This document shows, piece by piece, positions 19,814-64,000 of a stretch of 64,000 bases of DNA; positions within the stretch are counted from its first letter, which is position 1, and each line of letters opens with the position of its first letter. A program made the translations under genes and the position numbers. The notes under the pieces are model-generated. The model was given only the letters and a program-made list of their open reading frames with translations, did not search any database and was not told the origin of the DNA. Origin of the DNA: an uncultured Alphaproteobacteria bacterium (GTDB lineage: Bacteria > Pseudomonadota > Alphaproteobacteria > Methylaequorales > Methylaequoraceae); NCBI GenBank assembly GCA_902563505.1, contig CACEXK010000003.1, forward strand, positions 110,318-174,317, written 5' to 3'.

Positions 19814-19814
19814 A

Positions 19815-43068: not shown

Positions 43069-43126
43069 AATTATTAAAGTAAACTAAAATAATTTATTAC
43101 TCAACTAACCAAAAATTTTTAAAAAA

Positions 43127-44020: not shown

Positions 44021-44024
44021 ATTA

Positions 44025-45491: not shown

Positions 45492-45500
45492 AATCTCAAT

Positions 45501-46367: not shown

Positions 46368-47481
46368 TTTTCTCTTCCCTTGTTTCTATATTTTTATTTT
46401 TTTTCTTCAGCTCTGGAAGCGGCAAATATGGAACAATTCCGCTACCTGCATTCTTGTCTACGATTATTTTATCTATTTTTCCTAATGTTTTTTCTAATGT
46501 TTCTAGGTAAATTCTTTCACGGGTAACATCTTTTGATGATTTATATGAATCATAAACTGATAAAAATCGTTGAGCCTCACCTTGAGCTTTTGCAACTACT
46601 TCCTGCTTGTATGCTTCAGCCTCCTGGATTTTTCTCTCGGCCTCACCTCTTGCTTTAGGAATAATATCATTTCTGTAGGCCTCTGCTTCGTTTCTCAGAC
46701 GTTGTTCATCAGTTTTTGCTCTTTGAACATCTCTGTATGATTCTATTACTAATTCTGGCGGGTCTGCTTTTTGGAGCTGTACCTGAGTGACTAAGACACC
46801 AGATTTATAGTAATCTAAAACACTTTGAACTTTATTCTTCACATCTTCTTCAACAATTGATTTTCCTTCAGAGAGAATTGGATCAATTGGTGTTTGTCCT
46901 ATTTTTTCTCTCATTACACTTTCTCCAATACTTTTAATTGTAATCTCTGGATTTCTTACATTGAATAAAAAATCTTTGGCATCATTGATGATCCAAAAAA
47001 TTGTGAAATTTAAATCAACAATGTTTTCATCGCCAGTCAGCATCAATGCTTCTTCAGGTACCTGCCTGGCTTGGGGATTTTGACTAAATTGTGATTGCGA
47101 GGTTCTAAAACCAACTTCAATTCTATTAACCCTAGTCACTTTTGGTTTAAAAACAGATTCAACAGGAAATGGAAGATGATAATGCAAACCAGGTTCCGTT
47201 GTTCTGACATATTGCCCAAATCTAGTAACAACTCCTTGTTCGTCAGTTCCAACTCTATAAAATCCACTTATTGCCCAAAAACCTAATATTATTAACAAGA
47301 CCAATGATAAACTGGCTGGGTTTTTGTTGGGAAAAAACTTCTTTAGTCTATCTTGAATATTTTTAAATGGATCATCATTACCGCCATCTCCGGTTGAACC
47401 GGAGCCGTTATATGACTTTTTGTTATCCTTGGAGCTTTTTCCCCAGGGACTATCATCATCGTTATTTGAAGACCAAGACAT
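46360..47481 (-). CDS. hflK: Protease modulator HflK (SPFH/band 7)
   Basis: SPFH domain, charged coiled-coil C-terminal region and a low-complexity N-terminus. Confidence 0.85.
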   Translation of the reverse strand: MSWSSNNDDDSPWGKSSKDNKKSYNGSGSTGDGGNDDPFKNIQDRLKKFFPNKNPASLSLVLLIILGFWAISGFYRVGTDEQGVVTRFGQYVRTTEPGLHYHLPFPVESVFKPKVTRVNRIEVGFRTSQSQFSQNPQARQVPEEALMLTGDENIVDLNFTIFWIINDAKDFLFNVRNPEITIKSIGESVMREKIGQTPIDPILSEGKSIVEEDVKNKVQSVLDYYKSGVLVTQVQLQKADPPELVIESYRDVQRAKTDEQRLRNEAEAYRNDIIPKARGEAERKIQEAEAYKQEVVAKAQGEAQRFLSVYDSYKSSKDVTRERIYLETLEKTLGKIDKIIVDKNAGSGIVPYLPLPELKKKNKNIETREEKNE

Positions 47482-47587
47482 AAATTTTATAGAAAATCCT
47501 TAATTCTTATATAAGAATTGTTTTGACTATGCAAAGATTTATTTTAGTTATTTAAAATTTTTTATACAGTATAATATACCAATCGTA

Positions 47588-48361
47588 ATGAAAAAAATAA
47601 TATTAGTGGGTTCTGGTAAAGGTGGAGTTGGGAAATCAACAGTTTCAGTAAATTTATCAATAGCTTTAAGTCAAATTAAAAAATTAAAAATTGGGTTGTT
47701 AGATGCTGATATTTATGGCCCTTCTATTCCTAAAATGCTGGATATTATTGAAAAACCCAAAGTAAATGAAAGTAAAAAAATAATTCCTTATGAAAAATTT
47801 GGAATTAAATCAATGTCAATAGGCAATATGATTCCATCGGATAATGCTATTATTTGGAGGGGAGCAATGGCTTCAAGTGCAATTAAACAATTATTCAATG
47901 ATGTGGATTGGGGCGAACTTGACTACCTGATTGTCGATCTTCCCCCAGGAACCGGTGATATTCAACTTTCATTGTGCCAAAACTTTTCAATAGATGGTGT
48001 AGTTATAGTTTCCACACCTCAAGAAATTTCGCTAATTGATGTTAGAAAAGCTATAAATATGTTTAAACGAGTTAAAGTACCCATAGTAGGATTAGTGCAA
48101 AATATGAGTTATTTTGAAAAAAATGATGAAAAAAATTATATTTTTGGAAAAAATGGAGTTTCTAAAGAAGCTAAAGCTCAAAGTTTGGAATTATTGGGAG
48201 AAATTCCAATAAAAGAAAATATTTCTGAATCATGTGAGAGCGGAATCCCAATATCAGTTAAAAAAAAATCTGAAACTTCTAAGTTTTTTTTTGATATTGC
48301 TCACAATTTTTTAGAAATACTGCCTAAATTTACAAAAAATGATGTGAAAATTGAGTCCTAG
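47588..48361 (+). CDS. apbC: Mrp/ApbC-type Fe-S cluster carrier ATPase (short form lacking the N-terminal DUF59)
   Basis: Deviant Walker [10 protein letters not shown] and the CxxC-region motif of Mrp/NBP35. Confidence 0.8.
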
Positions 48362-49284
48362 AGATCAAATATTTTTTTTAAATTGTCCAGTTCTCTCTTT
48401 GATATTGAAAATTTTTTTGTATTTTTCTTGTTAATTTTTGCTTTAAGAAATCTTACTGCTTCAGATGAAATCGTGAGTGATTCAACTCTATTCTTAATAA
48501 AAGCATCAAAAGTTAAAGGGACCCATTTCTTTACAATTTCAAGCATTATTTTTGCGTAAATTCTTATTTCATATTGTGCATGAACATCAAATCTCAAAGC
48601 AAGAAAATGCATTAAATTATGTAAATCAATCTTCCAATACCATTGAGTATAAGAATTTATTGGCAAAGTCATTCGTGCTAATTCTCTGGCTAATCCGCTT
48701 TTTTCAGTATCATTAATATTTCCATCTTCATCAATATTTAATAGGAAATTATAAATATCATAACTTTTTTTTGAGTGATCTTTTAAAGTTTTTATGTAAG
48801 ACTTTCCTTCTTCCTTATTCATTCCACCTCCTCTTCCTTGATTATTCAGTGTAGATTGAGGTTTAACATTTTCTAGTTTAGGAATATAAAATTCATTGTC
48901 TAGGATTGAATATCTCGCTGAATATTCATTTACATTAGCAGTTCTGTGGCGAATCCACTGTCTGGCAACAAAAATTGGGAGTTTTATATGAAATTTTATC
49001 TCATTCATCTCAAAGGGTGTAGTGTGTCTATGACTTAAAAGATAATTAATAAGACTTTTGTCTTGGTTTAATTTTTTTGTTCCCTTTCCATAAGAAACCC
49101 TGGCGGCTTGGACAATAGATGAATCATCGCCCATATAATCAATAACTCTTACAAAACCATGATCTAGTGCTTTATGTGGTTTGTATAAAATATTTTCCAG
49201 CTTTTTAACTGTAACTCTTTTAGTAGAAAAATTTGAGTTTCTTATTTTTCTAATTTCTGAATCTTCTATTTTTTTCTTTTTCAT
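48358..49284 (-). CDS. thyX: Flavin-dependent thymidylate synthase
   Basis: RHRx7S motif ([16 protein letters not shown]). 308 aa. Confidence 0.9.
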
Positions 49285-49399
49285 ATTTAATCAAACTTAA
49301 AATATCTTTTATATAAATAAATTTATAGGGTTTAATTTTTTTTTTTATTTAATATCATAAAAATGCTGTTTTACAGCTATGGCAATAAACGTTTGATTT

Positions 49400-49660
49400 G
49401 TGAACCGAGACGGACCCGGGGGCGGTACCCGGCGCCTCCACCAATAAATTAAGGGGGCGAAATAGGATCGACGTGCGTGGGAATTTTCAAAAACTTTGCC
49501 CGGAATGGTACCAACGTTATCGGACTAAAACTTATAAATGCCAACGATAATACAATGGCACTCGCTGCTTAATTTATTAAGTTAGCGCGGTTGTGAGATC
49601 ACCGGGCAACAGAAGTCTCATCGGCAAGGGCGGGCAATTGTTCGCCCTTGTTTGTTTTAA
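49400..49660 (+). ncRNA. ssrA: tmRNA (ssrA), circularly permuted two-piece type. The acceptor piece ends CCA at 49443 and the coding piece starts GGGGGCG at 49453.
   Basis: A GC-rich block in an AT-rich region. T-arm CCGGG-GGCGGTA-CCCGG, 3' acceptor strand CGCCUCC-A-CCA pairing with the downstream GGGGGCG, which gives a G3:U70 alanine identity pair. Tag reading frame 49540..49572 is GCC AAC GAT AAT ACA ATG GCA CTC GCT GCT TAA = ANDNTMALAA*. Terminator hairpin at 49626..49658. Confidence 0.8.
49626..49658 (+). terminator. Rho-independent terminator at the 3' end of the ssrA coding piece
   Basis: Stem AAGGGCG ... CGCCCTT with a 10-nt loop, followed by GTTTGTTTT. Confidence 0.6.
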
Positions 49661-50096
49661 GTAGACTCACAAAAGGTTTTAGAGGATTCACTCTTCAACA
49701 AATAAGGGAAAATGAAATAGGTTAAGTGTAACGCATTTTTTAAGAAACTCCATGTAATAAAGGAGTTCAGTTCATACTTTAAATATCTGTAAAATTTGAA
49801 GTGTAGTTTTTTCATATAAAAATGATTGCAAAAAACAGTAGATTAAACCTCAGGAAAAAAATTTCATCTACTAACTTTTCTTTTAAATATTTATTTCTAA
49901 TCATAATTTTTCCTGAAGGGTAAAAGTAATCTGAAAAACATGTTGAAATTTCAAATGCAAATGTTGCATCTTTTATTTTTGTTATTAATTTATTCGACCT
50001 TTGTGGATCAGACAATTTAATAAAAATAATTATAAAGTTGAAAATCTAATTCATTTTCCTGGGCATTAAGTGTTTTAATTAAATAAATTCATAAAT

Positions 50097-50864
50097 TTAA
50101 TGATTTTTTCTATAAATTCCTTTGATGGAGATAGAAAAATCTAAAAAAAATAAATTTGGTACTTTAATAACTTTAATTTTTTCAAGACTATTATCTAAAC
50201 ATTTCAAAATTTTGTCTGAGAAATTTGGGTGTTCCCAGCAAATTATTTTATCATAATCTAATCCAAGTTTTTTATAAACATGTCGTCTTGTAAAAAAAAA
50301 TCTTCCAAGTCCCCATGCTAAATGTCCCTCATTTGGAATTACAAAAATTAAGTATCCATCCTTTTTTAAAATTCTGTTTATTTGAACTACAAACTCCTCT
50401 AAATTCATTATATGTTCTAGTGAAAAAAAAGATAAAACATAATCATATGACCTGGAAGATATTTGACTCATATCTTTAACTTTATTTATTATAAACTTTT
50501 TAACCTTTATTTTTCGTTTATTTAATTTTTTTTCTGATATTTTTAAAAAATCTAAATTAGTGTCTATTAAATCAAAAGATTTTGGAGTTTTACTTTTCCA
50601 AAATTTTTCATGGTCAAGAAAACCTGGACCTATTTCTATTATATTTTTATTATGAAAGTTAATTAAAGAATTTTGAATAACCTTATATGCATTTAGTTTA
50701 ATTAATTTATCTATTAAACTTTTATCTCTATGCTCATAAGTTTTTGTTATATTATTAATCCAGGATAACCAATCTTGATCGTCTTTATCAAAATTATAAT
50801 AATATTTTCTTCTATCACCGAATAATTTTTTATATAAAAAATATGGCAAAAATTTTCTTATCAT
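50097..50864 (-). CDS. Class I SAM-dependent methyltransferase
   Basis: IIEIGPGF (motif I) and an acidic motif II region. 255 aa. Confidence 0.6.
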   Translation of the reverse strand: MIRKFLPYFLYKKLFGDRRKYYYNFDKDDQDWLSWINNITKTYEHRDKSLIDKLIKLNAYKVIQNSLINFHNKNIIEIGPGFLDHEKFWKSKTPKSFDLIDTNLDFLKISEKKLNKRKIKVKKFIINKVKDMSQISSRSYDYVLSFFSLEHIMNLEEFVVQINRILKKDGYLIFVIPNEGHLAWGLGRFFFTRRHVYKKLGLDYDKIICWEHPNFSDKILKCLDNSLEKIKVIKVPNLFFLDFSISIKGIYRKNH

Positions 50865-51307
50865 ATCAAATAAAATTTTTAAAAAGTTGTTTAAATTATA
50901 TATTTTTTTTTATTATAGCAAATTTTTTTTTTTTTATCTTCATAGGATGTTATGATTCTATTTTTTAGCTCATTATTGCCTAACCAATCATCAAAAGGTT
51001 CATCATTAATCCATTTTTCCTTTTTGTTTAAAAAAATTTCAATTGTTTCGGCTTTATATATTTTTTTTTCGAGCTGGCTTTCCATTTTCTAACTCTGTTT
51101 TGATGTTGCATTCAAGAATTATTTGATCAGAAAAAACAAAATGATGAAATAAAATAAAATAAAAAGAAAATAAAATATTTTTTCATTTACACCTTATATT
51201 AAATTTGCATTTCATTGAGAATTAAAATTGATACATTTTAAGATATCAAAAAATAAATTCTTTTACTATTCTGAAAATGTAGATTTCTTCTCTAAAAAAG
51301 TTTTTCT

Positions 51308-52144
51308 TTATTTCTTATAATTTGGATTTTTTTGATTTGATTTAGTAATTTTTGTCAGTTCAGAAAAATTCAAATTTTTTTCCTTAGGAAAAGCAAAAAT
51401 ATAAAACTTTCCAACTCTATCAAAATGATTTTCTGAATTAATAAAATAATTTTCTTCATTGAAAAATCTGTAGTCAAACCAGTATAAATCATAATTTTGC
51501 GTAAATAAGAAGTTATTTAATTCAAAAGGGTTTGTAGGGTTATTTTCACATATTATGATGGGTCTGAATTTTTTAATAAATTTCAAACCACCCTCTAATA
51601 TTTGCTTTTCAAGTAGCTCTGCTTCTAACTTAATTAAATTACATTTTTTAATATCTTCAAATAAATCTAAATTTTTTATCTGAACTTTAGTTTTATTACC
51701 TTTATTAATTTTTATAAATTCAGAATAATTATAATTTTCTCCCAAACCGAATCCGCCAAAATTACCAACTTCTGAATAATTTATTTCATCTACGAGTACT
51801 TCCGTTTGTATTTTACCCATACCTGCATTAAATACTTCGACATTTTTTATATCATTAAGTGCTAAATTTCCACATTGGAGGTAATAAAGCATTTTTTGTG
51901 GTTCAAAGGAAAATACTTTCCCCTCATATCCAATTTTTTTAGATATTGGAATTGTAAATAAGCCTACATGTGATCCAATATCAAAAACATAATCAGATTT
52001 ACTTATTAAAGATAAAATTTTATTTAGTAATTTTTCAGACCACTCGCCGTATTCTCTGATGCTAAGTCCCACAAATTCATCATAATTTAAGAACATAAAG
52101 TCACCATGCTTTGCATTAACAAAACCTACAGAATTATTTTTCAT
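51308..52144 (-). CDS. FkbM-family methyltransferase
   Basis: VFDIGSHVGLFTIP ... FSFEP, typical of the FkbM domain. Confidence 0.7.
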   Translation of the reverse strand: MKNNSVGFVNAKHGDFMFLNYDEFVGLSIREYGEWSEKLLNKILSLISKSDYVFDIGSHVGLFTIPISKKIGYEGKVFSFEPQKMLYYLQCGNLALNDIKNVEVFNAGMGKIQTEVLVDEINYSEVGNFGGFGLGENYNYSEFIKINKGNKTKVQIKNLDLFEDIKKCNLIKLEAELLEKQILEGGLKFIKKFRPIIICENNPTNPFELNNFLFTQNYDLYWFDYRFFNEENYFINSENHFDRVGKFYIFAFPKEKNLNFSELTKITKSNQKNPNYKK

Positions 52145-52472
52145 AAATGAACATCAGCAAAATTCATTCCATATTGTTAAAAAATAATTAAAAAAAAAGG
52201 GGATAGAAATCCCCTTTTCGTATTAAAGTAAATCAAATTAAAAAGATTATTTAACCTTTAGTCAAAGGTTGCTCCGATAAAAAGTTAAATACATTAAATT
52301 GAGTTAAATCTATAATACTAGACATCAGATCACCTCCTTAAAAAATAATTAATATTAATTTTAATATAGTGTGACATATTCAGATTCACAAGTTGAATGA
52401 AGGTATGGGAAAAAAATTCTAAAAATATTAAGTATTAATCATACAATTCTTCAATTTTTCTGCAAAAATTAT

Positions 52473-53567
52473 ATGATTAGAGTTATGAGTAGAAAATTAA
52501 ATGCTATTGATTTATTCGCAGGTGCTGGTGGTTTGTCATATGGATTGTCAGAAAGTGGGATTAAGGTTTTATTAGCTAATGAAATTGAGAATGACTTTTC
52601 TAAAACTTACATGCTAAATCATTCTAAAACGGAAATGCTTAACTGCGATATAAGTAAAATTGATTTTAAAAAAAAAATTCAAGACTTGGGTTGTCAAAAT
52701 ATTGATATTTTATGTGGAGGCCCACCTTGCCAAGGTTTTAGTACTGTTGGTAAAAAAGATCAAAGTGATAGGAGAAACTCACTCTTTTGGGAATTTCTTC
52801 GCGTAGTTAAAGAAACTAGTCCTAAAGTAATTTTATTTGAAAATGTCTCTGGCTTTAAAACTTTATATAAAGGTTTAGCTTTTTCAACTTTACTAAGTGA
52901 ATTAAAAATGATGGGATTCAAAACTTTTCATAATGTTTTAGATGCGTCTGACTTTGGCCTACCACAAAGAAGACTTAGAACTATAATTGTAGGTGTTATT
53001 TTTGATAAAGCCTTCCAATTTCCAAAGTTAACGCATTATAATTTAGATAATTTATTTGGGGAAAAAAAATTGACTTTGATGGATGCAATATCTGATTTAC
53101 CGAATCTTAAATCTGGAGAGTCAAAAGATTTTTACTCTACAAAACCAAATAACAATTTTCAAAAGAAAATGAGAGGAGATCTAGAGATTTTAACTGAACA
53201 CAATGCAACGAATTACGGAGAAAAAATGAAAAAAATTCTAAGTTTAATTCCAAAAAATGGTAGCGTGTTAAATTTACCTAAGGAATTAAGGCCAAAGAAA
53301 TATTTTAATAATGTATATGCTCGACTTGATGGTGAAAAAATTTGTCCAACTATAACAAGAAATTTTGGTACACCATCTTCATCAAGATGTATTCATCCTC
53401 ACCAAAATAGAGCATTGTCAACTAGAGAAGGAGCTAGAATACAAAGTTTTCCTGATAATTTTAGATTTTATGGAAGTAAGACAAGTAAAAATCTACAAAT
53501 TGGAAACGCAGTTCCTCCACTATTAGGAAAATTGCTTGGTAAAGAAATTAAAAAGTTATTTTCTTGA
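52473..53567 (+). CDS. dcm: DNA (cytosine-5)-methyltransferase (type II R-M modification subunit)
   Basis: C5-MTase motifs I DLFAGAGG, IV GGPPCQGFS, VI ENV, VIII QRRLRTIIVG and X GNAVPP. Confidence 0.9.
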   Translation: MIRVMSRKLNAIDLFAGAGGLSYGLSESGIKVLLANEIENDFSKTYMLNHSKTEMLNCDISKIDFKKKIQDLGCQNIDILCGGPPCQGFSTVGKKDQSDRRNSLFWEFLRVVKETSPKVILFENVSGFKTLYKGLAFSTLLSELKMMGFKTFHNVLDASDFGLPQRRLRTIIVGVIFDKAFQFPKLTHYNLDNLFGEKKLTLMDAISDLPNLKSGESKDFYSTKPNNNFQKKMRGDLEILTEHNATNYGEKMKKILSLIPKNGSVLNLPKELRPKKYFNNVYARLDGEKICPTITRNFGTPSSSRCIHPHQNRALSTREGARIQSFPDNFRFYGSKTSKNLQIGNAVPPLLGKLLGKEIKKLFS

Positions 53568-54146
53568 TTTTAAAATTGGCCTAAATACGAGCCCTTTATA
53601 TTCTTTAAATTCTATTTCTTGGCCCCAATTATTGCAATCAACGCACATTGGTACAATATTTCCTATTTCGTATGATTTACTCTTCAAAAGATGTCCTTTG
53701 TCATAGTGATTCATTTTTCGTCCACAAACAGCACATCCACGTTCTTTGAATTTTTCTAAAATTTTTTGCCAATCTTCATTTGTCAAATTATTTTCTCTCT
53801 TGATTGAATTTTTAGTCCAAACCGGATTAGGTTCTTCAATTGAATGTAAAGACATCTGATTATTTCTGAATTTCTTTTCATATATCCCTCTGGTAAATCT
53901 TTTATTTCCAGATTTTATATACCAACCTAAATCAGCTAAATGTCTAGCCTGCCTCTTATATTCAAAATTATTCTCACTGTGCCATCTTTCAATTTCATCC
54001 TGAGTCATTGGTTTGGGCATCTTTGCATATAGGCAAATCAATTCAATAAGTTTTTTCCCAGATGGAAAATCTACTCCTTCATTCCTGAGATTTGAATGCC
54101 ATTTAGTTCGTATTTTAATTTCTAAATCTTTTAAAATTCTATTCAT
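53556..54146 (-). CDS. HNH-motif endonuclease, candidate restriction enzyme partner of the C5-MTase
   Basis: CAVCGRK...H..GH...N..PMCVDCNN (CxxC...H...N...CxxC HNH core). Convergent with the MTase gene, with a 12-nt 3' overlap. Confidence 0.55.
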   Translation of the reverse strand: MNRILKDLEIKIRTKWHSNLRNEGVDFPSGKKLIELICLYAKMPKPMTQDEIERWHSENNFEYKRQARHLADLGWYIKSGNKRFTRGIYEKKFRNNQMSLHSIEEPNPVWTKNSIKRENNLTNEDWQKILEKFKERGCAVCGRKMNHYDKGHLLKSKSYEIGNIVPMCVDCNNWGQEIEFKEYKGLVFRPILKSRK

Positions 54147-54168
54147 TATGCAAAAGATAATATAAATT

Positions 54169-54453
54169 TTAGTAATTCATCCTTTTCTTTATTTCCTCGA
54201 CATATTCAGGAAAATAATCATTTATTTTCATTAATTTAAAAGATGCTAGTATTGAAGTGTTTGACTCATTATCTAGGAGAAACTCAAAACTTAAATACAA
54301 AAGTTTTTCCTTTGTAATTTTGCCATTCGTCAAATATTGATAAACTTCATCTGAAACATTTACAAGATGAGTCGTCACAGATTTTGAATTGATTGTAATA
54401 TGAAATTCATCATCTGAATTTTTCTTTATGTTTATTTTGTTATCAGCTACCAT
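54169..54453 (-). CDS. Hypothetical protein (94 aa)
   Basis: ORF only. No recognisable motifs. Confidence 0.3.
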   Translation of the reverse strand: MVADNKINIKKNSDDEFHITINSKSVTTHLVNVSDEVYQYLTNGKITKEKLLYLSFEFLLDNESNTSILASFKLMKINDYFPEYVEEIKKRMNY

Positions 54454-54571
54454 TACAAAAATAAATCAAAAATTTATCTTGAAAAAAAGAAAATGTATAT
54501 TACTTAAATTATGGAAGAAATTAAACTGACTATGTAAACTTACATAAATGTTATCATAGTCAGTTACCTGC

Positions 54572-54964
54572 TTAATTAAGTGGATCATCTCCCACCTCAT
54601 AATTTTTTAATTTACCCTCAATTAATTGAAAATCCTCCCCTTCATGAGTTGTTATAGTAACATATTGATTTGAAGTTTTAACATTGAATTGCTCGTTCAC
54701 AGCATTTATATATGTTTTAACAAGTTCCTCAATTTGCTCTTTAGACCTCCCTTTTCTAATATCAAGATTCATTAAGCAAATCAAATCACCTTTTTCCGCC
54801 CTACCTAAATTTATATTATTAATGTCATGTTCTCTCAGACTTATTGCAATATGAGAAGTTCCCGTTTTCATAATATAACTAAATTTCGATTTTACAAATT
54901 CGATAAACCTTATTCTTTGCTGATTTTTTAGTGTAAAATTTATATCAAACTGTAAATGAGGCAT
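54572..54964 (-). CDS. Hypothetical protein with a Met-Pro N-terminus, possibly tautomerase superfamily
   Basis: The product begins MPHLQFDINF. Pro1 after Met is the hallmark of 4-OT/CHMI/MIF tautomerases. 130 aa. Confidence 0.3.
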   Translation of the reverse strand: MPHLQFDINFTLKNQQRIRFIEFVKSKFSYIMKTGTSHIAISLREHDINNINLGRAEKGDLICLMNLDIRKGRSKEQIEELVKTYINAVNEQFNVKTSNQYVTITTHEGEDFQLIEGKLKNYEVGDDPLN

Positions 54965-55027
54965 AATATATGGGATAAACGGGTTAAAAAATTATTTTGA
55001 ATTATTTTACCACCGTTCTACCACAAT

Positions 55028-55849
55028 TCAATTAATTGTATAAAATAATTGTTGTCCTTTAACTCTAAAAGAAGAAATTAAATCTTTAGTTTTTCTTGAA
55101 TTTAACCAATTTACAAATTTACTTGTCTGAGACACCTTTGTGTCTGGACATTTATCGGGATTAATAGGAATCACACCATAGAAATTATATAAATTCGGCT
55201 CATTTTCAACTAATATTTTATGATCTCTTTTGTTGTTAAAGCTTACCCATGTTGATCTATCAGAAAGTATGTAAGCATTTTTATTTACAGCTATATTTAA
55301 TGAACCTCCCATACCTTGTCCAACAGAATAATACCAAGAATCTTCTCTTGGGTTCGGAACGAAATTAGTAAGTTCCCATAATTTTATCTCTTTTTTGTAA
55401 GTTCCACTTTCATCACCCCGAGAAATAAATCTAAACTTATTTTTTCTAATGATATTAAGTGAATCAACAATAGAATTTGATATACTAATTTTAGCAGGAT
55501 CATTACTAGGACCAATTAAAACAAAATCGTTGTACATAAATTCCTTTCTGAAAAGTCCAAAACCATCTTCAACAAACTTTTCCTCAGATTCTTTATGGTG
55601 AACTATAAGCAAATCACCATCACATCTCATGGAGTTTTTTATAGCTTGACCCGTTCCAACAGCTACCACTCGAACTTCAATATCATACTCATTTTTGAAG
55701 TTAGGTAAAATATAATCATATAAACCAGAGTCTCTTGTTGAAGTTGTAGATTGAAGAATAATAAAACTTTTGGATTTTGAAAAAGAATAATAATTTATAA
55801 ACAAAACTAAACTGAAAATAATTGAAATATATTTGGATATTGTTTTCAT
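55028..55849 (-). CDS. Periplasmic substrate-binding protein, tungstate/molybdate (TupA/WtpA-like PBP)
   Basis: Signal peptide, then ILQSTTSTRDSGLYDYILP, which resembles the TTSTxDSGLLD anion-binding motif of TupA-type binding proteins. No permease or ATPase gene is adjacent. Confidence 0.55.
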   Translation of the reverse strand: MKTISKYISIIFSLVLFINYYSFSKSKSFIILQSTTSTRDSGLYDYILPNFKNEYDIEVRVVAVGTGQAIKNSMRCDGDLLIVHHKESEEKFVEDGFGLFRKEFMYNDFVLIGPSNDPAKISISNSIVDSLNIIRKNKFRFISRGDESGTYKKEIKLWELTNFVPNPREDSWYYSVGQGMGGSLNIAVNKNAYILSDRSTWVSFNNKRDHKILVENEPNLYNFYGVIPINPDKCPDTKVSQTSKFVNWLNSRKTKDLISSFRVKGQQLFYTIN

Positions 55850-56008
55850 ATTAAAGAATAATAAATAATGTTCTAAATAATACTTATTCTATAAATTAGC
55901 AGCAATAAAGTTTTTTTATAAGAATCAAGACAAATGCCATAAACAAATTATTTGCATTTAAAAATCATTGATAATTTTTTTTAAAAACCAATATAACTTA
56001 TTAAGTTA

Positions 56009-56058
56009 TCCCACCCTAATTATTTTCCTTCATTTAATCCCAAAAATTAGGGTGGGTA
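56009..56058 (-). terminator. Perfect 12-bp inverted repeat (CCCACCCTAATT ... AATTAGGGTGGG), a hairpin immediately 3' of the 56060..56401 gene
   Basis: GC-rich stem that is unusual for this genome. There is no immediate U-tract, so it may be a terminator or an RNA stability element. Confidence 0.4.
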
Positions 56059-56059
56059 T

Positions 56060-56401
56060 CTAATGTAGACTATCAGAAAATTTAAATATTTTCTGTTCCT
56101 CTTTGGTTTTTTTGCAGATGGGGCACATTTTTGTTGCCAGTATCTGTGCTTTAATAAATAATTGGTCAGATTCTCTAAGTAATCTATTGAGTAGTTTCTT
56201 TGCAATTAATTTCTTTTCTGGAATCGACTTTGCTGATACCCAAAGTCTCTCAAATATTTGATTATATCTATAGTGCAGTTCTTTCTTTTTTTTAACTACA
56301 TCATCGATGATTTCAATTACGACATGGTCATAATTTTTTTCCTCATCAATTTCTTCAATTGAATCTGTTTCTTGACTAAATAAATCTATAAGTTTTCTCA
56401 T
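56060..56401 (-). CDS. Hypothetical protein (113 aa, acidic N-terminus, single C-terminal CxxC)
   Basis: ORF only. Confidence 0.3.
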   Translation of the reverse strand: MRKLIDLFSQETDSIEEIDEEKNYDHVVIEIIDDVVKKKKELHYRYNQIFERLWVSAKSIPEKKLIAKKLLNRLLRESDQLFIKAQILATKMCPICKKTKEEQKIFKFSDSLH

Positions 56402-56500
56402 TCTTAATTAAGTTATTATGTGATTGGACTTGTAAGAATTATTACTGGGGAGTGATATTCCTACAAGTCCTCTCAGCTTTTTTAGGACTTGAAAACCTTC

Positions 56501-58831
56501 CTAAAAACTTGCAATACCTTTAACCCATGCAGTTAGAGGTTTTCCCGCTCTTGCACCATCAGGATGTCTGGATGAAATATATTCTAGATCAGTTGCATTA
56601 TTTACTCCTGCAGTTATCGAGTAATTTTTGTTAATCTCATAACCAGCACGCAAATTCAGCAAGGTAGCTGAATCAATCTTTCCAGCTCTTGCATCAGGTG
56701 TTGATCCAGAAACTTCAGTATCAGTCTCCGCAGCAGTACCGTGTGTTTCAGAGTGGTGGGTTACATTTATTCCGAAAGTAAAAGGACCATATGCATAATC
56801 AATTCCACCAGAAAAAACATGCTCTGGAACATATGGGACATTATTACCATCTCGACCACCAGAGAAAATGGATTCAGAATCAGTTGAGGTTGAATCACCA
56901 TCTAAATTAGCATTTGTAAATGTGTAGTTTGCATAAAATGTTGTATCACCAGCAAAAGGCAAGAAATTTTCAGGTGAATAAGCGGTCATTAATTCAAAAC
57001 CCTTGGATACGATTTTACCTGCATTATCGGCATCACCACCTGTGTTCGAATTATCTAAAACCAAAACATTATCAAAGTCTGTTTTAAAACCAATAAATGA
57101 GGCCGAGAAGTTTTCATCAGCGTATCTAACGCCAAGCTCTTTCTGAACACTTTTTTCTGGTTGAATAGGTGTTCCATCATCTCTAGCTCCACTTGGAGAG
57201 GTAAAACCAAAACCTTTATAAACTGCACCATACCATTGCCAGTTTTCATCATGATTGTAAGTTAATCCACCGCCTGGAACAAATGCATAAGTTTTTTCTT
57301 CCAAGTTATTAGTGGTTCCCATTGTAGCAGCTCCACTTCTGTAATGCTGTTTTACATACTCAAATCGCGAGCCAAAGGATACAACAAAATTATTAATTGT
57401 AGCTGACTCTTCAAAGTAAGCCGCAGCTCCTTTTGTTTTTTGGTTTCTATCGGCATCAAAAGCATGTGAACTCGTTGTTAATGTCCCAGTATTTGCAGCC
57501 TGATTGTATGTATCAGTATATTGATCCCTGTTAATTGAATCATAATGAAACTTAAAACCAACTTTAAGGTCATGATCAATTCTTCTATTAAGAATATTAG
57601 TAGCAAAATCAAAATTAGTTTGGTTCATTACCCCGTAAGCATAATACTGTCTGTCGTTAGATTTATATCTCACAGTACCAGCTCTATCACCTCTATATAT
57701 TTCGATATCTGTTGTATTTCCGCCTCTAGCTGCTGTGTATGCTTTCGAAGAAATTGCTCTGATATTGGTGCCATTAACTCTATCTAACTTATACCAATCT
57801 CTATAAAACTGATTGTAATAAAAAGTAGTTGTATTCTTGATATCATCAGTAATCTCTGCATGAATCTTTGCGTAGTATGTTTTCGCTTCTGAGTTCATAT
57901 TGTCTAACTGACTGGCTACATACCTTTGAAAAGGGTCGTTATTAAAATCAGCAGTAGTTAAACCTGCATAACCCTCATAATAATCAAGACTATTATAAGC
58001 ACCTTTTAGCTCAAGAGTTACTTTGTTTCTTACAGGAAGCTGCCATAATAATTTTACCATTGGTGCAATCTGAGAAAGACCTCCCGCATCATCATCACCA
58101 TAATGATCTTGCGGACCTGCTCCATCTGCATCAACTGGACCAGTAAAATCTCTAAATCCGTCATTATCACGCCAGTATGCCTCCGCTAGAATAGCAATGG
58201 CACCATAGCGCCCAGTTATTCCATAATTTCCGTAAGCATGAGTTGAGATATCATTATGTGAGCCATACGATACACTTCCGTAGGCTCTTTGTCCGAAATC
58301 AATTGGTGTCGTTTGATAGTTTATAACACCACCGGTTGTATGTGGACCATACCTAAATTGCGCACTACCTTTTAAAATTTCAATCGAATTCATTTTTGCA
58401 GCTAATGGTGAATAATATGCATCTGGGGCTGAATAAGGGGCAGGGGCAATGTTGATACCATCTTCCAGCATAGTTACAGCTGCCGTACGTAAAGTGCTAA
58501 CCCCTCTCAAGCTAATGTTAGGAAAAATACCATAACCGTCTTCTTCACGAGAATAAACACCCGTTGAATTTCTTAAAATATCATTAATATTCTGAAAATT
58601 ATATTTTCTGATTTGTTCAGTTGGAATGTAATCACCAGAGCCGGGAAGTTCAAAATCCTGCTCTGGCGACTCATAAATGTTTACATCAGGAGCTACATAA
58701 GCGTAGTCCTGAGCATAAACATTGGCACTTAACATAAAGCAAAAAGTAAATGCTAACCTTGACATTTGACGAGCATATTTAGGTGCTAACCTTTCAGTCA
58801 TAACTGAACTAGTATAAATTTTTTTGCGCAT
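56501..58831 (-). CDS. TonB-dependent outer-membrane receptor
   Basis: Signal peptide (MSRLAFTFCFMLSANVYAQ), a plug domain with IEILKGSAQFRYGPHTTGGVINY, a long beta-barrel region and a C-terminal aromatic residue (…GIASF). Its GC content is visibly higher than the flanking DNA (roughly 40-47% by eye). Confidence 0.85.
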   Translation of the reverse strand: MRKKIYTSSVMTERLAPKYARQMSRLAFTFCFMLSANVYAQDYAYVAPDVNIYESPEQDFELPGSGDYIPTEQIRKYNFQNINDILRNSTGVYSREEDGYGIFPNISLRGVSTLRTAAVTMLEDGINIAPAPYSAPDAYYSPLAAKMNSIEILKGSAQFRYGPHTTGGVINYQTTPIDFGQRAYGSVSYGSHNDISTHAYGNYGITGRYGAIAILAEAYWRDNDGFRDFTGPVDADGAGPQDHYGDDDAGGLSQIAPMVKLLWQLPVRNKVTLELKGAYNSLDYYEGYAGLTTADFNNDPFQRYVASQLDNMNSEAKTYYAKIHAEITDDIKNTTTFYYNQFYRDWYKLDRVNGTNIRAISSKAYTAARGGNTTDIEIYRGDRAGTVRYKSNDRQYYAYGVMNQTNFDFATNILNRRIDHDLKVGFKFHYDSINRDQYTDTYNQAANTGTLTTSSHAFDADRNQKTKGAAAYFEESATINNFVVSFGSRFEYVKQHYRSGAATMGTTNNLEEKTYAFVPGGGLTYNHDENWQWYGAVYKGFGFTSPSGARDDGTPIQPEKSVQKELGVRYADENFSASFIGFKTDFDNVLVLDNSNTGGDADNAGKIVSKGFELMTAYSPENFLPFAGDTTFYANYTFTNANLDGDSTSTDSESIFSGGRDGNNVPYVPEHVFSGGIDYAYGPFTFGINVTHHSETHGTAAETDTEVSGSTPDARAGKIDSATLLNLRAGYEINKNYSITAGVNNATDLEYISSRHPDGARAGKPLTAWVKGIASF

Positions 58832-58870
58832 AATTTAAATTTCCAAAAAATCTTAATAAAGTAATCTTTA

Positions 58871-58962
58871 TTATGATAATAGTTATCATTATCGTTATTA
58901 ATAATAATGATTATCATTACCAAAACTTATTGTCAACAAGATAATGATAATTATTATCATTA
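58871..58962. promoter_or_regulatory. Three Fur-box-like operators in the divergent promoter region between the TonB-dependent receptor and the MBL-fold gene
   Basis: 58875-58893 GATAATAGTTATCATTATC, 58903-58921 AATAATGATTATCATTACC and 58940-58958 GATAATGATAATTATTATC, compared with the Fur consensus GATAATGATAATCATTATC. A minus-strand TTGACA -35 lies at 58931-58936 and its -10 region overlaps box 2. Confidence 0.7.
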
Positions 58963-59052
58963 GTTTTTTTTATCTTCTTAACTAATTTTTTTAATACTTT
59001 ATAAACTATCTATTAAACCTAAAATCAAAGACAAGAAACTATTCTATAGAAT

Positions 59053-59982
59053 ATGAAAAAAACATTTTTTGCCATAATAATTGTCTTTTTTTTCAGGATT
59101 AACGCTTTTGAAATCTCTGAGATTGATAAAGGAATTTTTGTTCATTATGGAATTCAGCAAGATTCCAACAAAAATAACGCCGGAGATATCGCAAATATTG
59201 GCTTTATAATTGGAAAAAAATCCATATTAGTCGTTGATACAGGTGGAACACCAATAATTGGCCAAAAACTTTTACAAAAAATTAAAGAAATATCTAATTT
59301 ACCTATTTCTCATGTTGTTATTACCCATTCCCACCCTGATCATTTTTTTGGAACTCAGGCTTTCTTAGCTGAAAACCCCAAAATTGTTGGGCATGAAAAA
59401 CTCAATAGATCTCTTTTAAGCAATTTTAATTTTTACAAAAACCAACAACTGAGTAATATTCAAGATGATTCAATCCAAGAGGCTCAACTTGTTAAGGCTA
59501 ATGTTTTAATCAAAACTAATAAAACAAAAATTATTGATCTTGGCGAGAGGTTTGTTGAAATCAAGGCATGGGAAACTGGCCATACTGATAATGACCTCTC
59601 AATTTATGATAAAAAAACAAAAACTTTCTGGTCGGAAAATATTTTTGTTAAAAGAACACCATCAATTCGTGCTAGTATCTTAGGTTGGAGAAAAAACTTA
59701 GAAGAAATTTCAAAAATGGAAATTAAACTGATAATACCAGGCCACGGAAAAGCTGTAGATAAAGAAAAAGCAATTAAGCCTATGATCAATTATTTTGATA
59801 GAATTATTGTCAAATTGAGAGAATTGCAAAAAAAGAATAAATCACTGCAAGAGTCAATAAATATAATTCTCCAAGAGTCAATTTTAGAGCCCTCAGAAGT
59901 TAACAAAGAAAATTGGATTTTATTTGATGAATATCATTATTCGAACATTACAAAAGCCTTTACCGAGCTTGAATGGGAATAA
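59053..59982 (+). CDS. Exported metallo-beta-lactamase-fold hydrolase
   Basis: Signal peptide and the HxHxDH motif (ITHSHPDHFFG). Confidence 0.7.
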   Translation: MKKTFFAIIIVFFFRINAFEISEIDKGIFVHYGIQQDSNKNNAGDIANIGFIIGKKSILVVDTGGTPIIGQKLLQKIKEISNLPISHVVITHSHPDHFFGTQAFLAENPKIVGHEKLNRSLLSNFNFYKNQQLSNIQDDSIQEAQLVKANVLIKTNKTKIIDLGERFVEIKAWETGHTDNDLSIYDKKTKTFWSENIFVKRTPSIRASILGWRKNLEEISKMEIKLIIPGHGKAVDKEKAIKPMINYFDRIIVKLRELQKKNKSLQESINIILQESILEPSEVNKENWILFDEYHYSNITKAFTELEWE

Positions 59983-60235
59983 TACTTAACAAAACAGATT
60001 ATTTGTCGATGATAAATACATGTTTCCAATTTTTTTTAAAACAATTATTTACTTAAACATAAGTTTTATTCTTTTAATTTCCTTTTACCTTATATTCTCA
60101 AAAAAAAATGAACCCAAAGAATTTCCTGAAAAATTTAGTAAAAAATATCTGCTTAAACTACCTAAATTCTAGCTCTTAAAAGTAATTTTTCAAAAAACTA
60201 TTTACTATTTTTAAGCTAGCAACTAAATTACAAAT

Positions 60236-60409
60236 ATGGATAATATGGATTCAAAAGAGCAAATTCAAAGACTGGAGGAAAAAATTGACAAGCTTCAACG
60301 ATCAATTTCTAAGCTAGAAAAAAAACTTTCAAGCCACATTGAATTTATCGATAGAGTCTACGAACCACTTAGAAGTCCAATATCAAAAATAAAAAATTTT
60401 TTTGGGTAA
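60236..60409 (+). CDS. Small coiled-coil ORF (57 aa)
   Basis: MDNMDSKEQIQRLEEKIDKLQRSISKLEKKLSSHIEFIDRVYEPL.... It is below the ORF-track cutoff and heptad-like. Confidence 0.3.
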   Translation: MDNMDSKEQIQRLEEKIDKLQRSISKLEKKLSSHIEFIDRVYEPLRSPISKIKNFFG

Positions 60410-60424
60410 CTAAAGAGGTATCTG

Positions 60425-60763
60425 GTGATTTTTTTTTTGACTAAGATAATATTTTCAAGCTTTCTTATTGCTTTTGCTAGTTGGTTGTCAATCAAAAAAC
60501 CTGTACTTGCCGGTTTTATTATAGCTTTACCAATTGTTAGTATGATTTCAATTTTCTTTTCCTATTTTGAAAAAAAAGATTTTGAAAAAACAATGCTTTT
60601 TGCAAAAAGTATTTTTGTAGGAGTTCCACTCACATTAACATTTTTTATTCCTTTTTTATTTGCTAAAAATTTGGGATTGAATTTTCTACTAACTTACTCT
60701 CTTGGAATAATCTTCTTAATTGCTGGTTATTTCCTTCACAAAATAATAATGAATACAATTTAA
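60425..60763 (+). CDS. Small membrane protein (3-4 TM helices), unknown function
   Basis: 112 aa, hydrophobic throughout. Confidence 0.4.
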   Translation: MIFFLTKIIFSSFLIAFASWLSIKKPVLAGFIIALPIVSMISIFFSYFEKKDFEKTMLFAKSIFVGVPLTLTFFIPFLFAKNLGLNFLLTYSLGIIFLIAGYFLHKIIMNTI

Positions 60764-60907
60764 TGTATGAATTTAACAGACTTCTTATTTATCTGTCAGT
60801 AATTCTATCCATTTCATCACTTGTGGTATTTCTTTTTGTATAATTAGAAAAATCTTTGTATTTAAAAAATAATTATTTTTGATAGTATTTAAAGTATAGA
60901 AAATTTT

Positions 60908-61369
60908 ATGAAAAAAATCTTTATAGATTATGGACAAAGAATCAATACGGCAATTCTTGGTGTCATTCAGGATATTCTTCGGGATCTCTCAGAATCAAAA
61001 ATATCATCTAATCACTGCTTTTATATTACATTTAAGACAAAAGATGAGGATGTAAAGATTTCTAAAAATCTTCAGAAAGATTATCCCAAAGAGATGACTA
61101 TAGTACTACAAAATCAATACTGGGACCTAAATGTAAGAAAAAATCATTTCACAGTTACCTTAACTTTCAACAAAAAAAAAGAAATGCTCCAAATTCCATT
61201 TAAATCAATTATTAAATTCTATGATCCGTTTGTTAAATTCAGTATTCAACTTGAATTAAAAGATAATAAAATTAAAAGTCAAAAATCACTTATCAAGAAA
61301 AAAACAAAGAGTTCAGAAAAATCTCGGAAAATAATTACATTAGATGACTTCAGAAAAAAAAATAAATAG
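60908..61369 (+). CDS. sspB: ClpXP adaptor SspB (stringent starvation protein B), alphaproteobacterial type
   Basis: The spacing of hydrophobic and aromatic residues (…YITFKT…TIVLQNQYWDLNV…FTVTLTF…IPFKSIIKFYDP) matches the SspB substrate-binding domain. A Lys/Ser-rich tail ends in a probable ClpX-binding segment. Confidence 0.6.
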   Translation: MKKIFIDYGQRINTAILGVIQDILRDLSESKISSNHCFYITFKTKDEDVKISKNLQKDYPKEMTIVLQNQYWDLNVRKNHFTVTLTFNKKKEMLQIPFKSIIKFYDPFVKFSIQLELKDNKIKSQKSLIKKKTKSSEKSRKIITLDDFRKKNK

Positions 61370-62744
61370 TTTTAGAACCGAAAAAGATAGTATTGGAAAG
61401 ATTCAAGTTCCAAAAAATAAATACTGGGGGGCACAAACCCAAAGGAGTCTTGAAAACTTTAGAATTGGGTCAGACATAATGCCCAAAGAATTGATTCAAG
61501 CTTTTGCAATACAAAAGAAAGCTGCTGCAATTAGCAATATTGCATTAAATAAACTCGATTCAAAACTTGGTAATAAAATTATTCAGGTTTGTGATGAAAT
61601 TATTAAAGGTAAACTTTTAGATCATTTTCCACTATCAGTTTGGCAGACTGGTTCAGGCACGCAAACAAATATGAATCTTAACGAAGTCATAGCAAATAGG
61701 GCTAATGAAAGTTTAGGAAAAAATCTTGGCGAGTATGACCCTATTCACCCGAATGATCATTGTAATCTTGGGCAATCATCTAATGATTCTTTCCCAACTG
61801 CAATGCATATTTCAATAGTTCTTAAAGCTAAAGAAAAACTCTTTCCATCGATTGACATAATGTCAAACACACTAAAGAAAAAAATAAATCATTTTGAAAA
61901 AATAATAAAGGTTGGTAGAACGCATTTGCAGGATGCAACACCATTAACTCTTGGTCAAGAATTTCATGGTTATGTTGGTCAGGTTGAAAGTGCAAGAAAA
62001 AGAATTTCAGAATCTTTAAATAATCTCCTATATCTAGCACAAGGTGGTACAGCTGTTGGAACTGGATTGAACTCCTCTAGTAAATTTATTGCAGGCTTCA
62101 TAAAAGCAACTCAAATGATTACAGGAATGCCGTTTAAAGAATCAAAAAATAAATTTGAACTACTCTCGTCTCATGAATCAATAATTCATTTTTCAAGTTC
62201 AATGAACACATTAATTATTGCTTGTTACAAAATAGCAAATGATATCAGACTTATGGCATCAGGGCCAAGGTGTGGAATAGGTGAAATCACTTTACCTGCC
62301 AATGAACCTGGTTCGTCAATTATGCCAGGAAAAATAAATCCAACTCAGTGTGAAGCCATGACTCAGGTTTGTTTGCATTTAATGGGACTTAATTATTCAA
62401 ATTCAATAGCAGGAACCCAAGGACATTTTCAGCTCAATGCTTATAAAACATTGATTATTTTTAATACATTAAGAAGCATGCGGCTTATTTCGGATGCTAT
62501 TGAATCCTTCAGCAAAAAATGTTTAGATGGAATCGTTGCAAACAAAACAGTAATTGAAAAAAACTTAAAGAATTCTCTTATGCTTGTTACGGCTCTAAAT
62601 CCAAAAATAGGTTATTCTAAAGCTTCTGAAGTTGCAAAAAAAGCCTTTGAAGAAAATATTACGCTCAAAGAGGCAGTTGTAAAACTCGGTTATTTGAATG
62701 AAAAAGAGTTCGATTTAATTGTTGACATAAAAAAAATGATTTAA
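61344..62744 (+). CDS. fumC: Fumarate hydratase class II
   Basis: GSSIMPGKINPTQCEAM is the fumarase/aspartase signature (GSSxMPxKxN). 466 aa. Confidence 0.95.
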   Translation: MTSEKKINSFRTEKDSIGKIQVPKNKYWGAQTQRSLENFRIGSDIMPKELIQAFAIQKKAAAISNIALNKLDSKLGNKIIQVCDEIIKGKLLDHFPLSVWQTGSGTQTNMNLNEVIANRANESLGKNLGEYDPIHPNDHCNLGQSSNDSFPTAMHISIVLKAKEKLFPSIDIMSNTLKKKINHFEKIIKVGRTHLQDATPLTLGQEFHGYVGQVESARKRISESLNNLLYLAQGGTAVGTGLNSSSKFIAGFIKATQMITGMPFKESKNKFELLSSHESIIHFSSSMNTLIIACYKIANDIRLMASGPRCGIGEITLPANEPGSSIMPGKINPTQCEAMTQVCLHLMGLNYSNSIAGTQGHFQLNAYKTLIIFNTLRSMRLISDAIESFSKKCLDGIVANKTVIEKNLKNSLMLVTALNPKIGYSKASEVAKKAFEENITLKEAVVKLGYLNEKEFDLIVDIKKMI

Positions 62745-62749
62745 ATAAA

Positions 62750-64000
62750 TCAATCAAGAAATAAGTCAAGTATCTCATTTGGATTAATATCATTATTAAT
62801 TTTTCCTTTTTTCAGAAAATCTTTTAGAGAACCAGGATCAATAACTATAGATTTTTTTTCTTTTAATATTTTATTAATACCTTCATTAAAAAGTCTTTCT
62901 TTCAGCTTTTCAAAATCATACGATATTTTATAATTTTTTAATGTTCCATTCATATCAATTCCTAAAGGTGGAAGATTAGAATATTTTTTAGTTTTGAATT
63001 TAGCATCTGAATTAAGTATCAATTTGTCACTTATCATTTGATAGTTACCCACCGACGAAATTTCCAGGTTTTCATGCTTTGCAACTAATTCTTTAATTTG
63101 AAAGAAAGCATTCTTTGTAAAAAAATTTAATTTTATTGAATCTAGCATTGAATTCCCTTGAAAATTTTTGAATTTTAGAAAGCTTAGTAGAGCAGAAAGA
63201 TCATTAATTTCATCTACCCTTTTAGCTGCTTTTTTTAGATCTATTCCACTTAATTTAATTTTACCTACACTACAGAAACCTCTAGAATCAAGATTATTAA
63301 TTACATTCTCAAAATCTAAAGATTTAGTGGTAGTTGAAAAATTTATCGAACAATCTGCAAGACCATCATATAAATCAAAATCTGTTGAACCAAATAACTT
63401 TTTGTCTATCATAAAATTTGAGAAATTGATCAAACCATTTAATTTTTTTTTTTCTACATAATAAATTGAATCAATTCTGATAACTGAATTATTTTTCATT
63501 TTACCTGAAAACTTTTTTATTAAGATATTTCCCTTATCTATTATAAGATTAAAAACATTTTCTTTTATAGAAAATTTCTTCAAAGCGATTTCATTTATAT
63601 TGAAATCAAAATTTACTTTTAGATTTGTTGATAAATTATTTGTAAAATAAATCTTACTGTTTTTAAGATTAATCAATTGCCCAGACATAAATATAAATTC
63701 TTCTAGGGACAAAAATTTACTTTTTGCCTTTCCAAATATCTCAAAACCGTTTTGACTTATCAACAGTTTGCCGTTGTAATCAATTTTATTTCTATCTTTG
63801 ATTTTTTGTTGAATAATGAAATTTAAATCATCAAAATTTTTTCCATTAAAATCAAATTTTATTTTAGAATAGTATTTTTTTAATTCAAACTCCCCGCTTC
63901 CAACAAAATCTTCTTTACCCCGCAAAGTAAAATTTAAATCATTAAAAACAAGATTTTCTTTTTGATTAAGGTTAATAATACCTTCATATATTTTTATTAA
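62750..64000 (-). CDS. AsmA-family-like envelope protein, C-terminal part (the ORF stays open to the window end)
   Basis: The frame continues without a stop from 63925 to 64000. The product is repetitive and Asn/Lys-rich with a beta-rich character, like the C-termini of AsmA/TamB-like proteins. Low-confidence family call. Confidence 0.4.
   Translation of the reverse strand, partial: LIKIYEGIINLNQKENLVFNDLNFTLRGKEDFVGSGEFELKKYYSKIKFDFNGKNFDDLNFIIQQKIKDRNKIDYNGKLLISQNGFEIFGKAKSKFLSLEEFIFMSGQLINLKNSKIYFTNNLSTNLKVNFDFNINEIALKKFSIKENVFNLIIDKGNILIKKFSGKMKNNSVIRIDSIYYVEKKKLNGLINFSNFMIDKKLFGSTDFDLYDGLADCSINFSTTTKSLDFENVINNLDSRGFCSVGKIKLSGIDLKKAAKRVDEINDLSALLSFLKFKNFQGNSMLDSIKLNFFTKNAFFQIKELVAKHENLEISSVGNYQMISDKLILNSDAKFKTKKYSNLPPLGIDMNGTLKNYKISYDFEKLKERLFNEGINKILKEKKSIVIDPGSLKDFLKKGKINNDINPNEILDLFLD

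Follow-up and report, generated by a model that had tools for sequence, protein, structure and literature searches.

The interval between ssrA and sspB in an uncultured marine alphaproteobacterium is probably layered rather than one genomic island

In Dehalococcoides, tandem islands lie at ssrA, the gene for transfer-messenger RNA (tmRNA); some of them are devoid of an integration module, and they are followed by a syntenic region that has become fixed in the lineage (McMurdie et al. 2011, PMC3146451). In the SAR11 gMED pangenome, 61 small islands with almost no integrases have been described, of which seven abut tRNA genes and one a tmRNA gene (PMC11796062). We analysed a stretch of 64,000 nt from an uncultured alphaproteobacterium (contig CACEXK010000003.1 of assembly GCA_902563505.1; hereafter the window, with a GC content of ~29.6%) in which ssrA (49327-49663, + strand) and sspB (60908-61369, + strand) are ~11.2 kb apart. 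A first-pass annotation of the window had read the DNA between them as a single accessory island of about 10 kb. Comparison with relatives indicates that the interval is probably layered and not one island: a flexible zone of ~4.5 kb directly behind ssrA (49.7-54.2 kb), in which only two segments of 1.2 and 0.56 kb are demonstrably recent, appears to be followed by ~6.6 kb (54.2-60.8 kb) of genes conserved in the lineage.

The oldest layer concerns the position of ssrA itself. A ThyX-based scan of species-representative genomes yielded 80 alphaproteobacterial loci, which we annotated with tblastn and ARAGORN. ssrA directly adjoins thyX on its upstream side in 42 of them, and in 23 of these 42 sspB lies on the ssrA strand, -5 to 163 bp downstream, often with fumC a few kb beyond. 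The records concerned are labelled Rhodospirillaceae, Thalassospiraceae, Dongia, Sneathiellales, Paracaedibacter, Finniella, and MarineAlpha3, among others. Since sspB directly follows ssrA in so many of the thyX-ssrA loci, the order thyX-ssrA-sspB(-fumC) represents the ground plan in Alphaproteobacteria, which bears out the earlier suggestion of an ancestral ssrA-sspB adjacency interrupted in the window. The closest sequenced relatives of the window's lineage have a ThyX ~70% identical to its own, and for the Pelagibacteraceae single-cell genomes this value is ~60%. In 11 single-cell or metagenome-assembled genomes of Pelagibacteraceae (L006, L008, L010-L015, L017, L030, and L033; L-numbers designate our comparison loci and contigs), ssrA is followed by fumC after 50-1796 bp, so that the length of this gap itself varies. 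No SspB was found in the 20-kb loci of this family, including by hidden Markov model (HMM) search, which suggests that the family no longer has sspB at the ssrA-fumC position.

The distal part of the interval is shared by a wide range of relatives. A metagenome scan anchored on SspB retrieved 80 relative loci with 62-100% SspB identity and, wherever a contig reaches, its genes are arranged in the order (binding protein)-MBL-orf57-orf112-sspB-fumC-orf391. In the window, these are a TupA-like periplasmic binding protein (PBP_like_2, recognised by Pfam/NCBIfam; 55028-55849, - strand), an exported hydrolase of the metallo-beta-lactamase fold (MBL; 59053-59982, + strand; TIGR04559, 288.6 bits against a cutoff of 280), orf57 (60236-60409, + strand), the membrane protein orf112 (60425-60763, + strand), sspB (Pfam SspB PF04386, E 3e-32), and fumC (61344-62744, + strand; Lyase_1/FumaraseC_C), which sspB overlaps. 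The segment MBL-orf57-orf112-sspB occurs in this order in essentially every metagenome locus that covers the region, and the binding protein precedes MBL-sspB in ~30 loci. Further towards ssrA, orf94 (54169-54453, - strand), an open reading frame (ORF) starting with Met-Pro and resembling tautomerases (54572-54964, - strand; tautomerase/CHMI matches, all sub-threshold), and the binding protein gene keep the same order in L001, L091, L152, and L167. DNA corresponding to 54169-60763 is thus retained in relatives, and the absence from close relatives that characterises islands is not observed there. The right end of the proposed island, set at 60230, also has to be moved: taken up to sspB, the interval extends to 60907 and includes orf57 and orf112.

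Composition does not set the interval apart either. Neither sliding GC nor tetranucleotide profiles singled it out, with z-scores no higher than those of core regions, and in terms of per-gene GC at third codon positions (GC3) the sole outlier is the methyltransferase gene MT11, described below, all other interval genes being within the range of the window. The gene order conserved in dozens of relatives with SspB identities as low as 62%, together with this ordinary composition, argues against an island in the distal part. The first-pass annotation had itself named the same genes, in the same place and with similar composition in relatives, as the sign of a conserved locus; this is what we find for more than half of the interval, and by that measure the ~6.6 kb at 54.2-60.8 kb are a lineage-conserved block and no island. 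Elsewhere in the window, the region 15279-20771 has a low GC content (~26%) and a compositional deviation equal to that of the ssrA-adjacent zone; it encodes an asparagine-synthase-like protein together with four glycosyltransferases (two GT1/GT4, one GT2, and one GT9 heptosyltransferase) and is likely a surface-glycan cluster.

One part of the conserved block is optional. It consists of orf113 (56060-56401, - strand), a TonB-dependent receptor (TBDR) of 776 aa with Plug (PF07715) and barrel (PF00593) domains (56501-58831, - strand), and three Fur boxes (58875-58964) that precede the TBDR gene. This module (56060-58964) is present in seven relative loci, one of which, L088, is near-identical to the window; in 19 other loci the binding protein gene abuts the MBL gene and the module is missing, and three loci have other sequence in its place. 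Identity among the TBDRs ranges from 53 to 99% and broadly tracks that of the neighbouring genes. Apart from the three Fur boxes, the 64 kb contain no further match, against 0.09 expected by chance, and across the relatives such boxes are found exactly where the TBDR is found, which supports their earlier assignment to this gene. The module thus appears to be an old presence/absence polymorphism inside a conserved block. The TBDR gene had been described as GC-richer, which is correct for its overall GC content (37.6%) and not as a sign of foreign origin: the excess is located in codon positions 1 and 2, and GC3 is normal (22.8%, z 0.86), so that it would come from the amino-acid composition of the protein. 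In the near-identical locus, the Red Sea contig MDTA01023423 (L081/L088/L168, 3191-5607), the TBDR is called as three ORFs of 656, 86, and 39 aa that are 99% identical to the intact gene of the window, so that either the gene is frameshifted in that strain or the contig was misassembled. Relatives without the window's TBDR have a different outer-membrane protein on the other side of the TupA-like binding protein, namely a 655-aa TonB-dependent receptor (L125 5120-7087; L127 5303-7270) or a channel of ~345 aa of the MetA-pathway type (L149 3373-4407; L132 3934-4974). This suggests a conserved uptake function with an exchangeable outer-membrane component.

The DNA close to ssrA behaves very differently between strains. 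Variable sequence starts at 49714, 50 nt past the ssrA terminator and directly after a short non-coding segment that we call 'el' (49660-49713). L180, a 60-kb long-read contig conspecific with the window, diverges at this point: it is collinear with the window and 97-98% identical over 42580-49713 and 50920-64000, and it does not contain 49714-50919. The same segment is missing from L179, which is 99.7% identical to the window over 50920-53475. Both contigs, from two independent assemblies and with identical breakpoints, have 215 nt instead of the 1.2-kb cassette. The cassette is thus strain-specific, in agreement with the earlier view that genes untypical of the core immediately follow ssrA. 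The cassette carries MT11, a class I S-adenosylmethionine (SAM) methyltransferase identified by Pfam/NCBIfam (50097-50864, - strand), whose GC content (21.8%) and GC3 (13.7%) are the lowest in the window, lower than in any of the 49 genes located outside the interval. Its closest homologues with a known genomic context (83% and 67% identity) are located in glycan-biosynthesis clusters. At the right end of the cassette, the 215 nt of the two conspecific loci include the 3′ end of a 146-aa ORF; this c151-like ORF is complete in both L179 (146 aa) and L091 (143 aa), whereas the window's copy has lost its 3′ end at 50920 and survives as the remnant orf64 (50891-51085, - strand), its parent ORF having apparently been truncated by the cassette. 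Within the truncated ORF, homopolymer runs of T and A in the segment 50920-51184 differ in length by one base from those of L179, which could reflect pseudogene decay or sequencing error.

The remainder of the flexible zone includes genes of different ages. Next to orf64 the window encodes an FkbM-family methyltransferase (51308-52144, - strand; PF05050, TIGR01444), a dcm-type C5 cytosine DNA methyltransferase (52473-53567, + strand; PF00145, E 5.5e-74 over its full length), and HNH196, a 196-aa putative HNH-type endonuclease (53556-54146, - strand) convergent with dcm and overlapping it. The contig L091, which begins within ssrA and is ~78% identical to the window at the nucleotide level, has the order ssrA, 143-aa ORF, FkbM, dcm, orf94 and onward to sspB, without MT11. 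Its FkbM and dcm products are 83% and 82% identical to those of the window and encoded in the same positions, and the nucleotide identity of both genes (~78%) equals that of the flanking core, which does not support their reading as part of a single accessory island. What L091 lacks is exactly 53606-54168, the HNH196 indel. HNH196 has no Pfam or NCBIfam match; it has weak matches to PHROG HNH and endonuclease VII families (E 1e-4) and a C-terminal Cys/His nuclease-like motif, its homologues adjoin C5 methylases in two of two unrelated contexts, including a contig of archaeal appearance, and the junction orf94-HNH196-dcm recurs in several Tara contigs. The assignment of the C5 methylase, already proposed in the first reading of the sequence, is solid, and that of its HNH partner has to be stated more cautiously as it depends on those weak matches; the two likely form a type II restriction-modification (R-M) pair. 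They resemble known systems composed of a C5 methyltransferase and an HNH endonuclease in that the methylase and the putative nuclease are convergent and overlap; they differ from them in that the endonuclease label derives from weak profile matches and gene neighbourhood, and in that L091 keeps the methylase without the nuclease. The latter also indicates that such a pair can decay to an orphan methylase.

In more distant relatives, with ThyX ~70% identical, the cargo following ssrA differs both from that of the window and from one relative to another. It consists of a SAM methyltransferase in L001, of DoxX, two ORFs of unknown function, and a Tsp45I/N6-methylase R-M pair in L002, and of a DsrE-like fragment and a PhoD-like phosphatase in L003. 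Different methyltransferases, R-M systems, and small accessory genes occupy the ssrA-proximal zone in the window, L091, L001, L002, L003, L125, and L149. In L001, L002, and L003 the cargo is followed by genes for a 93-aa membrane protein, Fur, DUF3299, FtsX, and an ABC ATPase, at which the L002 contig stops; L001 continues with UPF0114, a metallophosphoesterase, a 151-aa ORF, a MORN protein, orf94, the tautomerase-like ORF, and the binding protein, and L003 lacks the metallophosphoesterase and stops at the MORN gene. The cargo found at this site, SAM and FkbM methyltransferases and the C5-MTase/HNH pair in the case of the window, is a strain-variable surface-modification and defence set typical of flexible islands.

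The same relatives provide a clue as to how cargo may enter. The ssrA of the window is a permuted two-piece alphaproteobacterial tmRNA gene with the tag ANDNTMALAA, located on the + strand at 49351-49663 by ARAGORN and at 49327-49623 by Rfam alpha_tmRNA (RF01849, 203 bits), with a terminator hairpin and T-run at ~49626-49659. Its last ~60 nt with the terminator (49599-49659, the ssrA core) and 'el' make up what we term the attachment site-like (att-like) segment (49599-49713, + strand). Partial direct copies of the last ~51-58 nt of ssrA, terminator included, occur nine times in five contigs: three in L002, three in L003, and one each in L149, L125, and L127 (blastn, 49-51 nt at 96-100% identity). 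When aligned, the copies of these five independent contigs share a non-ssrA 5′ arm of ~30-110 nt and start at the same position in ssrA, and they carry on their 3′ side the ~55-nt 'el', which in the window, L001-L003, and L091 is also found behind the complete ssrA gene. The whole repeat module (arm, ~58 nt of ssrA 3′ end, and 'el') measures ~150-220 nt. An nhmmer profile built from the copies recovers the nine partial copies with E 1e-32 to 1e-57 and, in the window, only ssrA itself; the ssrA core and 'el' are 90-96% conserved in loci with a ThyX identity of only ~70%. Neighbouring copies enclose cassettes of 0.25-4.2 kb, and in these relatives the repeats bound small ssrA-near cassettes only, never the distal block. 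The ssrA 3′ end as an integration hot spot, postulated from the window, thus finds support in cassettes bounded by partial copies of it.

Two further observations relate to these repeats. The non-coding 'el' (window 49660-49713; L001 9574-9628; L091 80-137; several in L003) is 92-96% conserved; that of L179 is divergent, with 86% identity to the window over 88 nt as opposed to 99.7% next door. The gene for the predicted 93-aa membrane protein (L001 8216-8497; L002 3788-4066; L003 6007-6285; L125 21-302; L127 57-338) always lies at most ~150 bp from an att-like copy, on a side that varies by contig, and its product, which has no family match, is 83-85% identical where neighbouring genes are 52-64% identical. 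We considered this ORF as a candidate excisionase and rejected it, as it encodes a small membrane protein.

From the observed synteny, indels, repeats, and composition we infer a recombination mechanism, an integrase acting in trans, and a direction for each gain or loss. Starting from the ancestral order thyX-ssrA-sspB(-fumC), a group of genes largely related to transport, namely orf94, the tautomerase-like ORF, those for the TupA-like binding protein and the MBL hydrolase, orf57, and orf112, would have been fixed between ssrA and sspB in the ancestor of this low-GC marine clade and would now be inherited vertically, with the Fur-controlled TBDR module as an optional part of the block. The DNA directly past the ssrA terminator would exchange small integrase-less cassettes. 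In relatives, the partial copies with their common arm and 'el' around cassettes produce the attL/attR pattern of repeated integration at the ssrA 3′ end, so that site-specific integration has probably occurred there repeatedly, with tandem accretion and a recombinase presumably provided in trans. In the window only the attL-like ssrA and 'el' would be left; the methyltransferase cassette would have replaced the 215 nt and the 3′ end of the neighbouring ORF, and the HNH196 gene would represent a second small indel. Either integration was followed by loss of an attR, or recombination with ssrA as its anchor, homologous or illegitimate, brought about the replacement.

The Dehalococcoides islands (PMC3146451) are similar in several respects: their host is streamlined, they are small and arranged in tandem directly downstream of a single ssrA gene, and a conserved non-ssrA motif precedes each repeat. 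They differ in that 16 of 31 carry a serine-recombinase module, whereas no recombinase was found in any cassette here, and in that their repeat is 20 bp long, in comparison with ~58 nt of ssrA within a ~150-220-nt module. Moreover, their target is the T-loop of a one-piece gene, in contrast with the 3′ end (coding piece and terminator) of a permuted two-piece gene, and the window's own strain has no repeat. The SAR11 islands share with our locus a low-GC, streamlined, marine alphaproteobacterial host, a small size, a fixed position between core genes, and a near absence of integrases, and partial tRNA repeats mark cassette insertions there (PMC11796062; for the hypervariable regions, Wilhelm et al. 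2007, PMC2217521). The window's lineage is nevertheless distinct, as the ThyX comparison with Pelagibacteraceae indicates; the passages of PMC11796062 used here describe neither repeats nor contents for the tmRNA-linked island, and sspB is missing from the Pelagibacteraceae loci at the ssrA-fumC position. The proximal zone of the interval is a further example of the tmRNA-linked flexible islands known from streamlined genomes.

Several results weigh against a layered interval fed by site-specific integration. The window contains no second copy of the ssrA 3′ end by repeat search, blastn-short, Smith-Waterman alignment against shuffled sequences, or nhmmer --max at E <= 10; the local-alignment scores of the ssrA 3′ fragment (24-25) fall inside the shuffled null range (20-33). 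The duplicated fragment sought near 60.0-60.3 kb is accordingly not found, in line with the original remark that no obvious direct repeat flanks the interval, and without an attR-like copy site-specific integration is inferred for the window's strain from its relatives. On its right side, the MT11 cassette ends inside an ORF at a poly-T run, a boundary more readily explained by illegitimate or homologous replacement than by clean integration. No integrase, transposase, or recombinase domain was detected in the interval ORFs of at least 94 aa, as the first-pass annotation had remarked for integrases and transposases, nor any recombinase by Pfam scans of 28 ORFs in the relatives' cassettes, and exact-pattern scans for the ssrA core in IMG/VR viral contigs gave 0 matches. 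In addition, the full ssrA-to-sspB span is contained in a single relative contig only in L091 and L180, and the map of the L001-type lineages is stitched from synteny across contigs.

These results give some weight to a replacement island with no site-specific mechanism, exchanged by homologous recombination between conserved flanks (ssrA and 'el' on the left, orf94 or the binding protein on the right), with the ssrA copies as by-products. The absence of integrases from every examined cassette and locus, the clean replacement of the MT11 segment without att duplication, and the lack of canonical mobile elements in SAR11-type islands, as reported in PMC11796062, are all compatible with it. By contrast, the conserved arm and common ssrA start of the partial copies in five independent contigs, a pattern that resembles the attR sites of related integrative elements, are unexpected from homologous exchange alone, so that we consider this explanation possible, although doubtful. 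In the opposite direction, the ~150-220-nt modules might be recombination sites of an integron-like platform of cassettes mobilised in trans and anchored where a permuted tmRNA gene has its 3′ end, an unlikely idea. If it were true, a recombinase from another genomic location or from a phage would shuffle cassettes of a single to a few genes, with R-M systems, methyltransferases, and phosphatases as cargo, among the cells of a streamlined marine clade otherwise without mobile elements.

A single accessory island of ~10.5 kb at ssrA, old or degraded and having lost its integrase and flanking repeat, seems very improbable to us. It would explain why the whole interval is missing at the ssrA-sspB junction of other Alphaproteobacteria, and it would agree with the use of tmRNA genes as integration sites (PMC3146451) and with the att-like repeats behind ssrA in relatives. 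It is difficult to reconcile with the great difference in age between its parts, from a strain-level indel at 49714-50919 and a species-level one at HNH196 to FkbM and dcm at flank-level identity in L091 and a binding protein-to-orf112 block conserved across the whole range of SspB identity, with repeats that in relatives never bound this block, and with the ordinary composition. Hardly credible, finally, is a conserved lineage-specific locus created by an ancient rearrangement and blurred by assembly or binning noise, since, despite the high synteny of the distal block and the metagenomic or error-prone long-read origin of several comparison contigs, the MT11 indel has identical breakpoints in two independent assemblies, the HNH196 indel has exact boundaries and its junction with orf94 and dcm recurs in Tara contigs, and cassette arrays are present in L002 and L003, which are single-cell genomes.

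The other genes that the first reading had listed between ssrA and sspB were confirmed by Pfam/NCBIfam, the 'HNH' and 'tautomerase' labels being those that depend on weak matches. Upstream of ssrA are degP, hflC, hflK, mrp, and thyX, the last of which is its conserved left neighbour (48358-49284, - strand; Pfam Thy1, E 4e-56).

The practical value of these results is modest, and the phenomenon fits known models. They separate variable from merely lineage-specific DNA at a classic integration site, where ~4.5 kb and not 10.5 kb should be annotated as flexible. The feature that deserves a closer look is the long att-like module, positioned at the 3′ end of a permuted ssrA, that encloses cassettes devoid of an integrase. 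Streamlined marine lineages appear to have departed from the thyX-ssrA-sspB arrangement by different routes, namely insertion in the present case and, in Pelagibacteraceae, the disappearance of sspB from this position. These loci provide a concrete case in which att-like repeats enclose cassettes without an integrase in a SAR11-like genome, a type of genome in which the acquisition of flexible genes without mobile elements is still debated.

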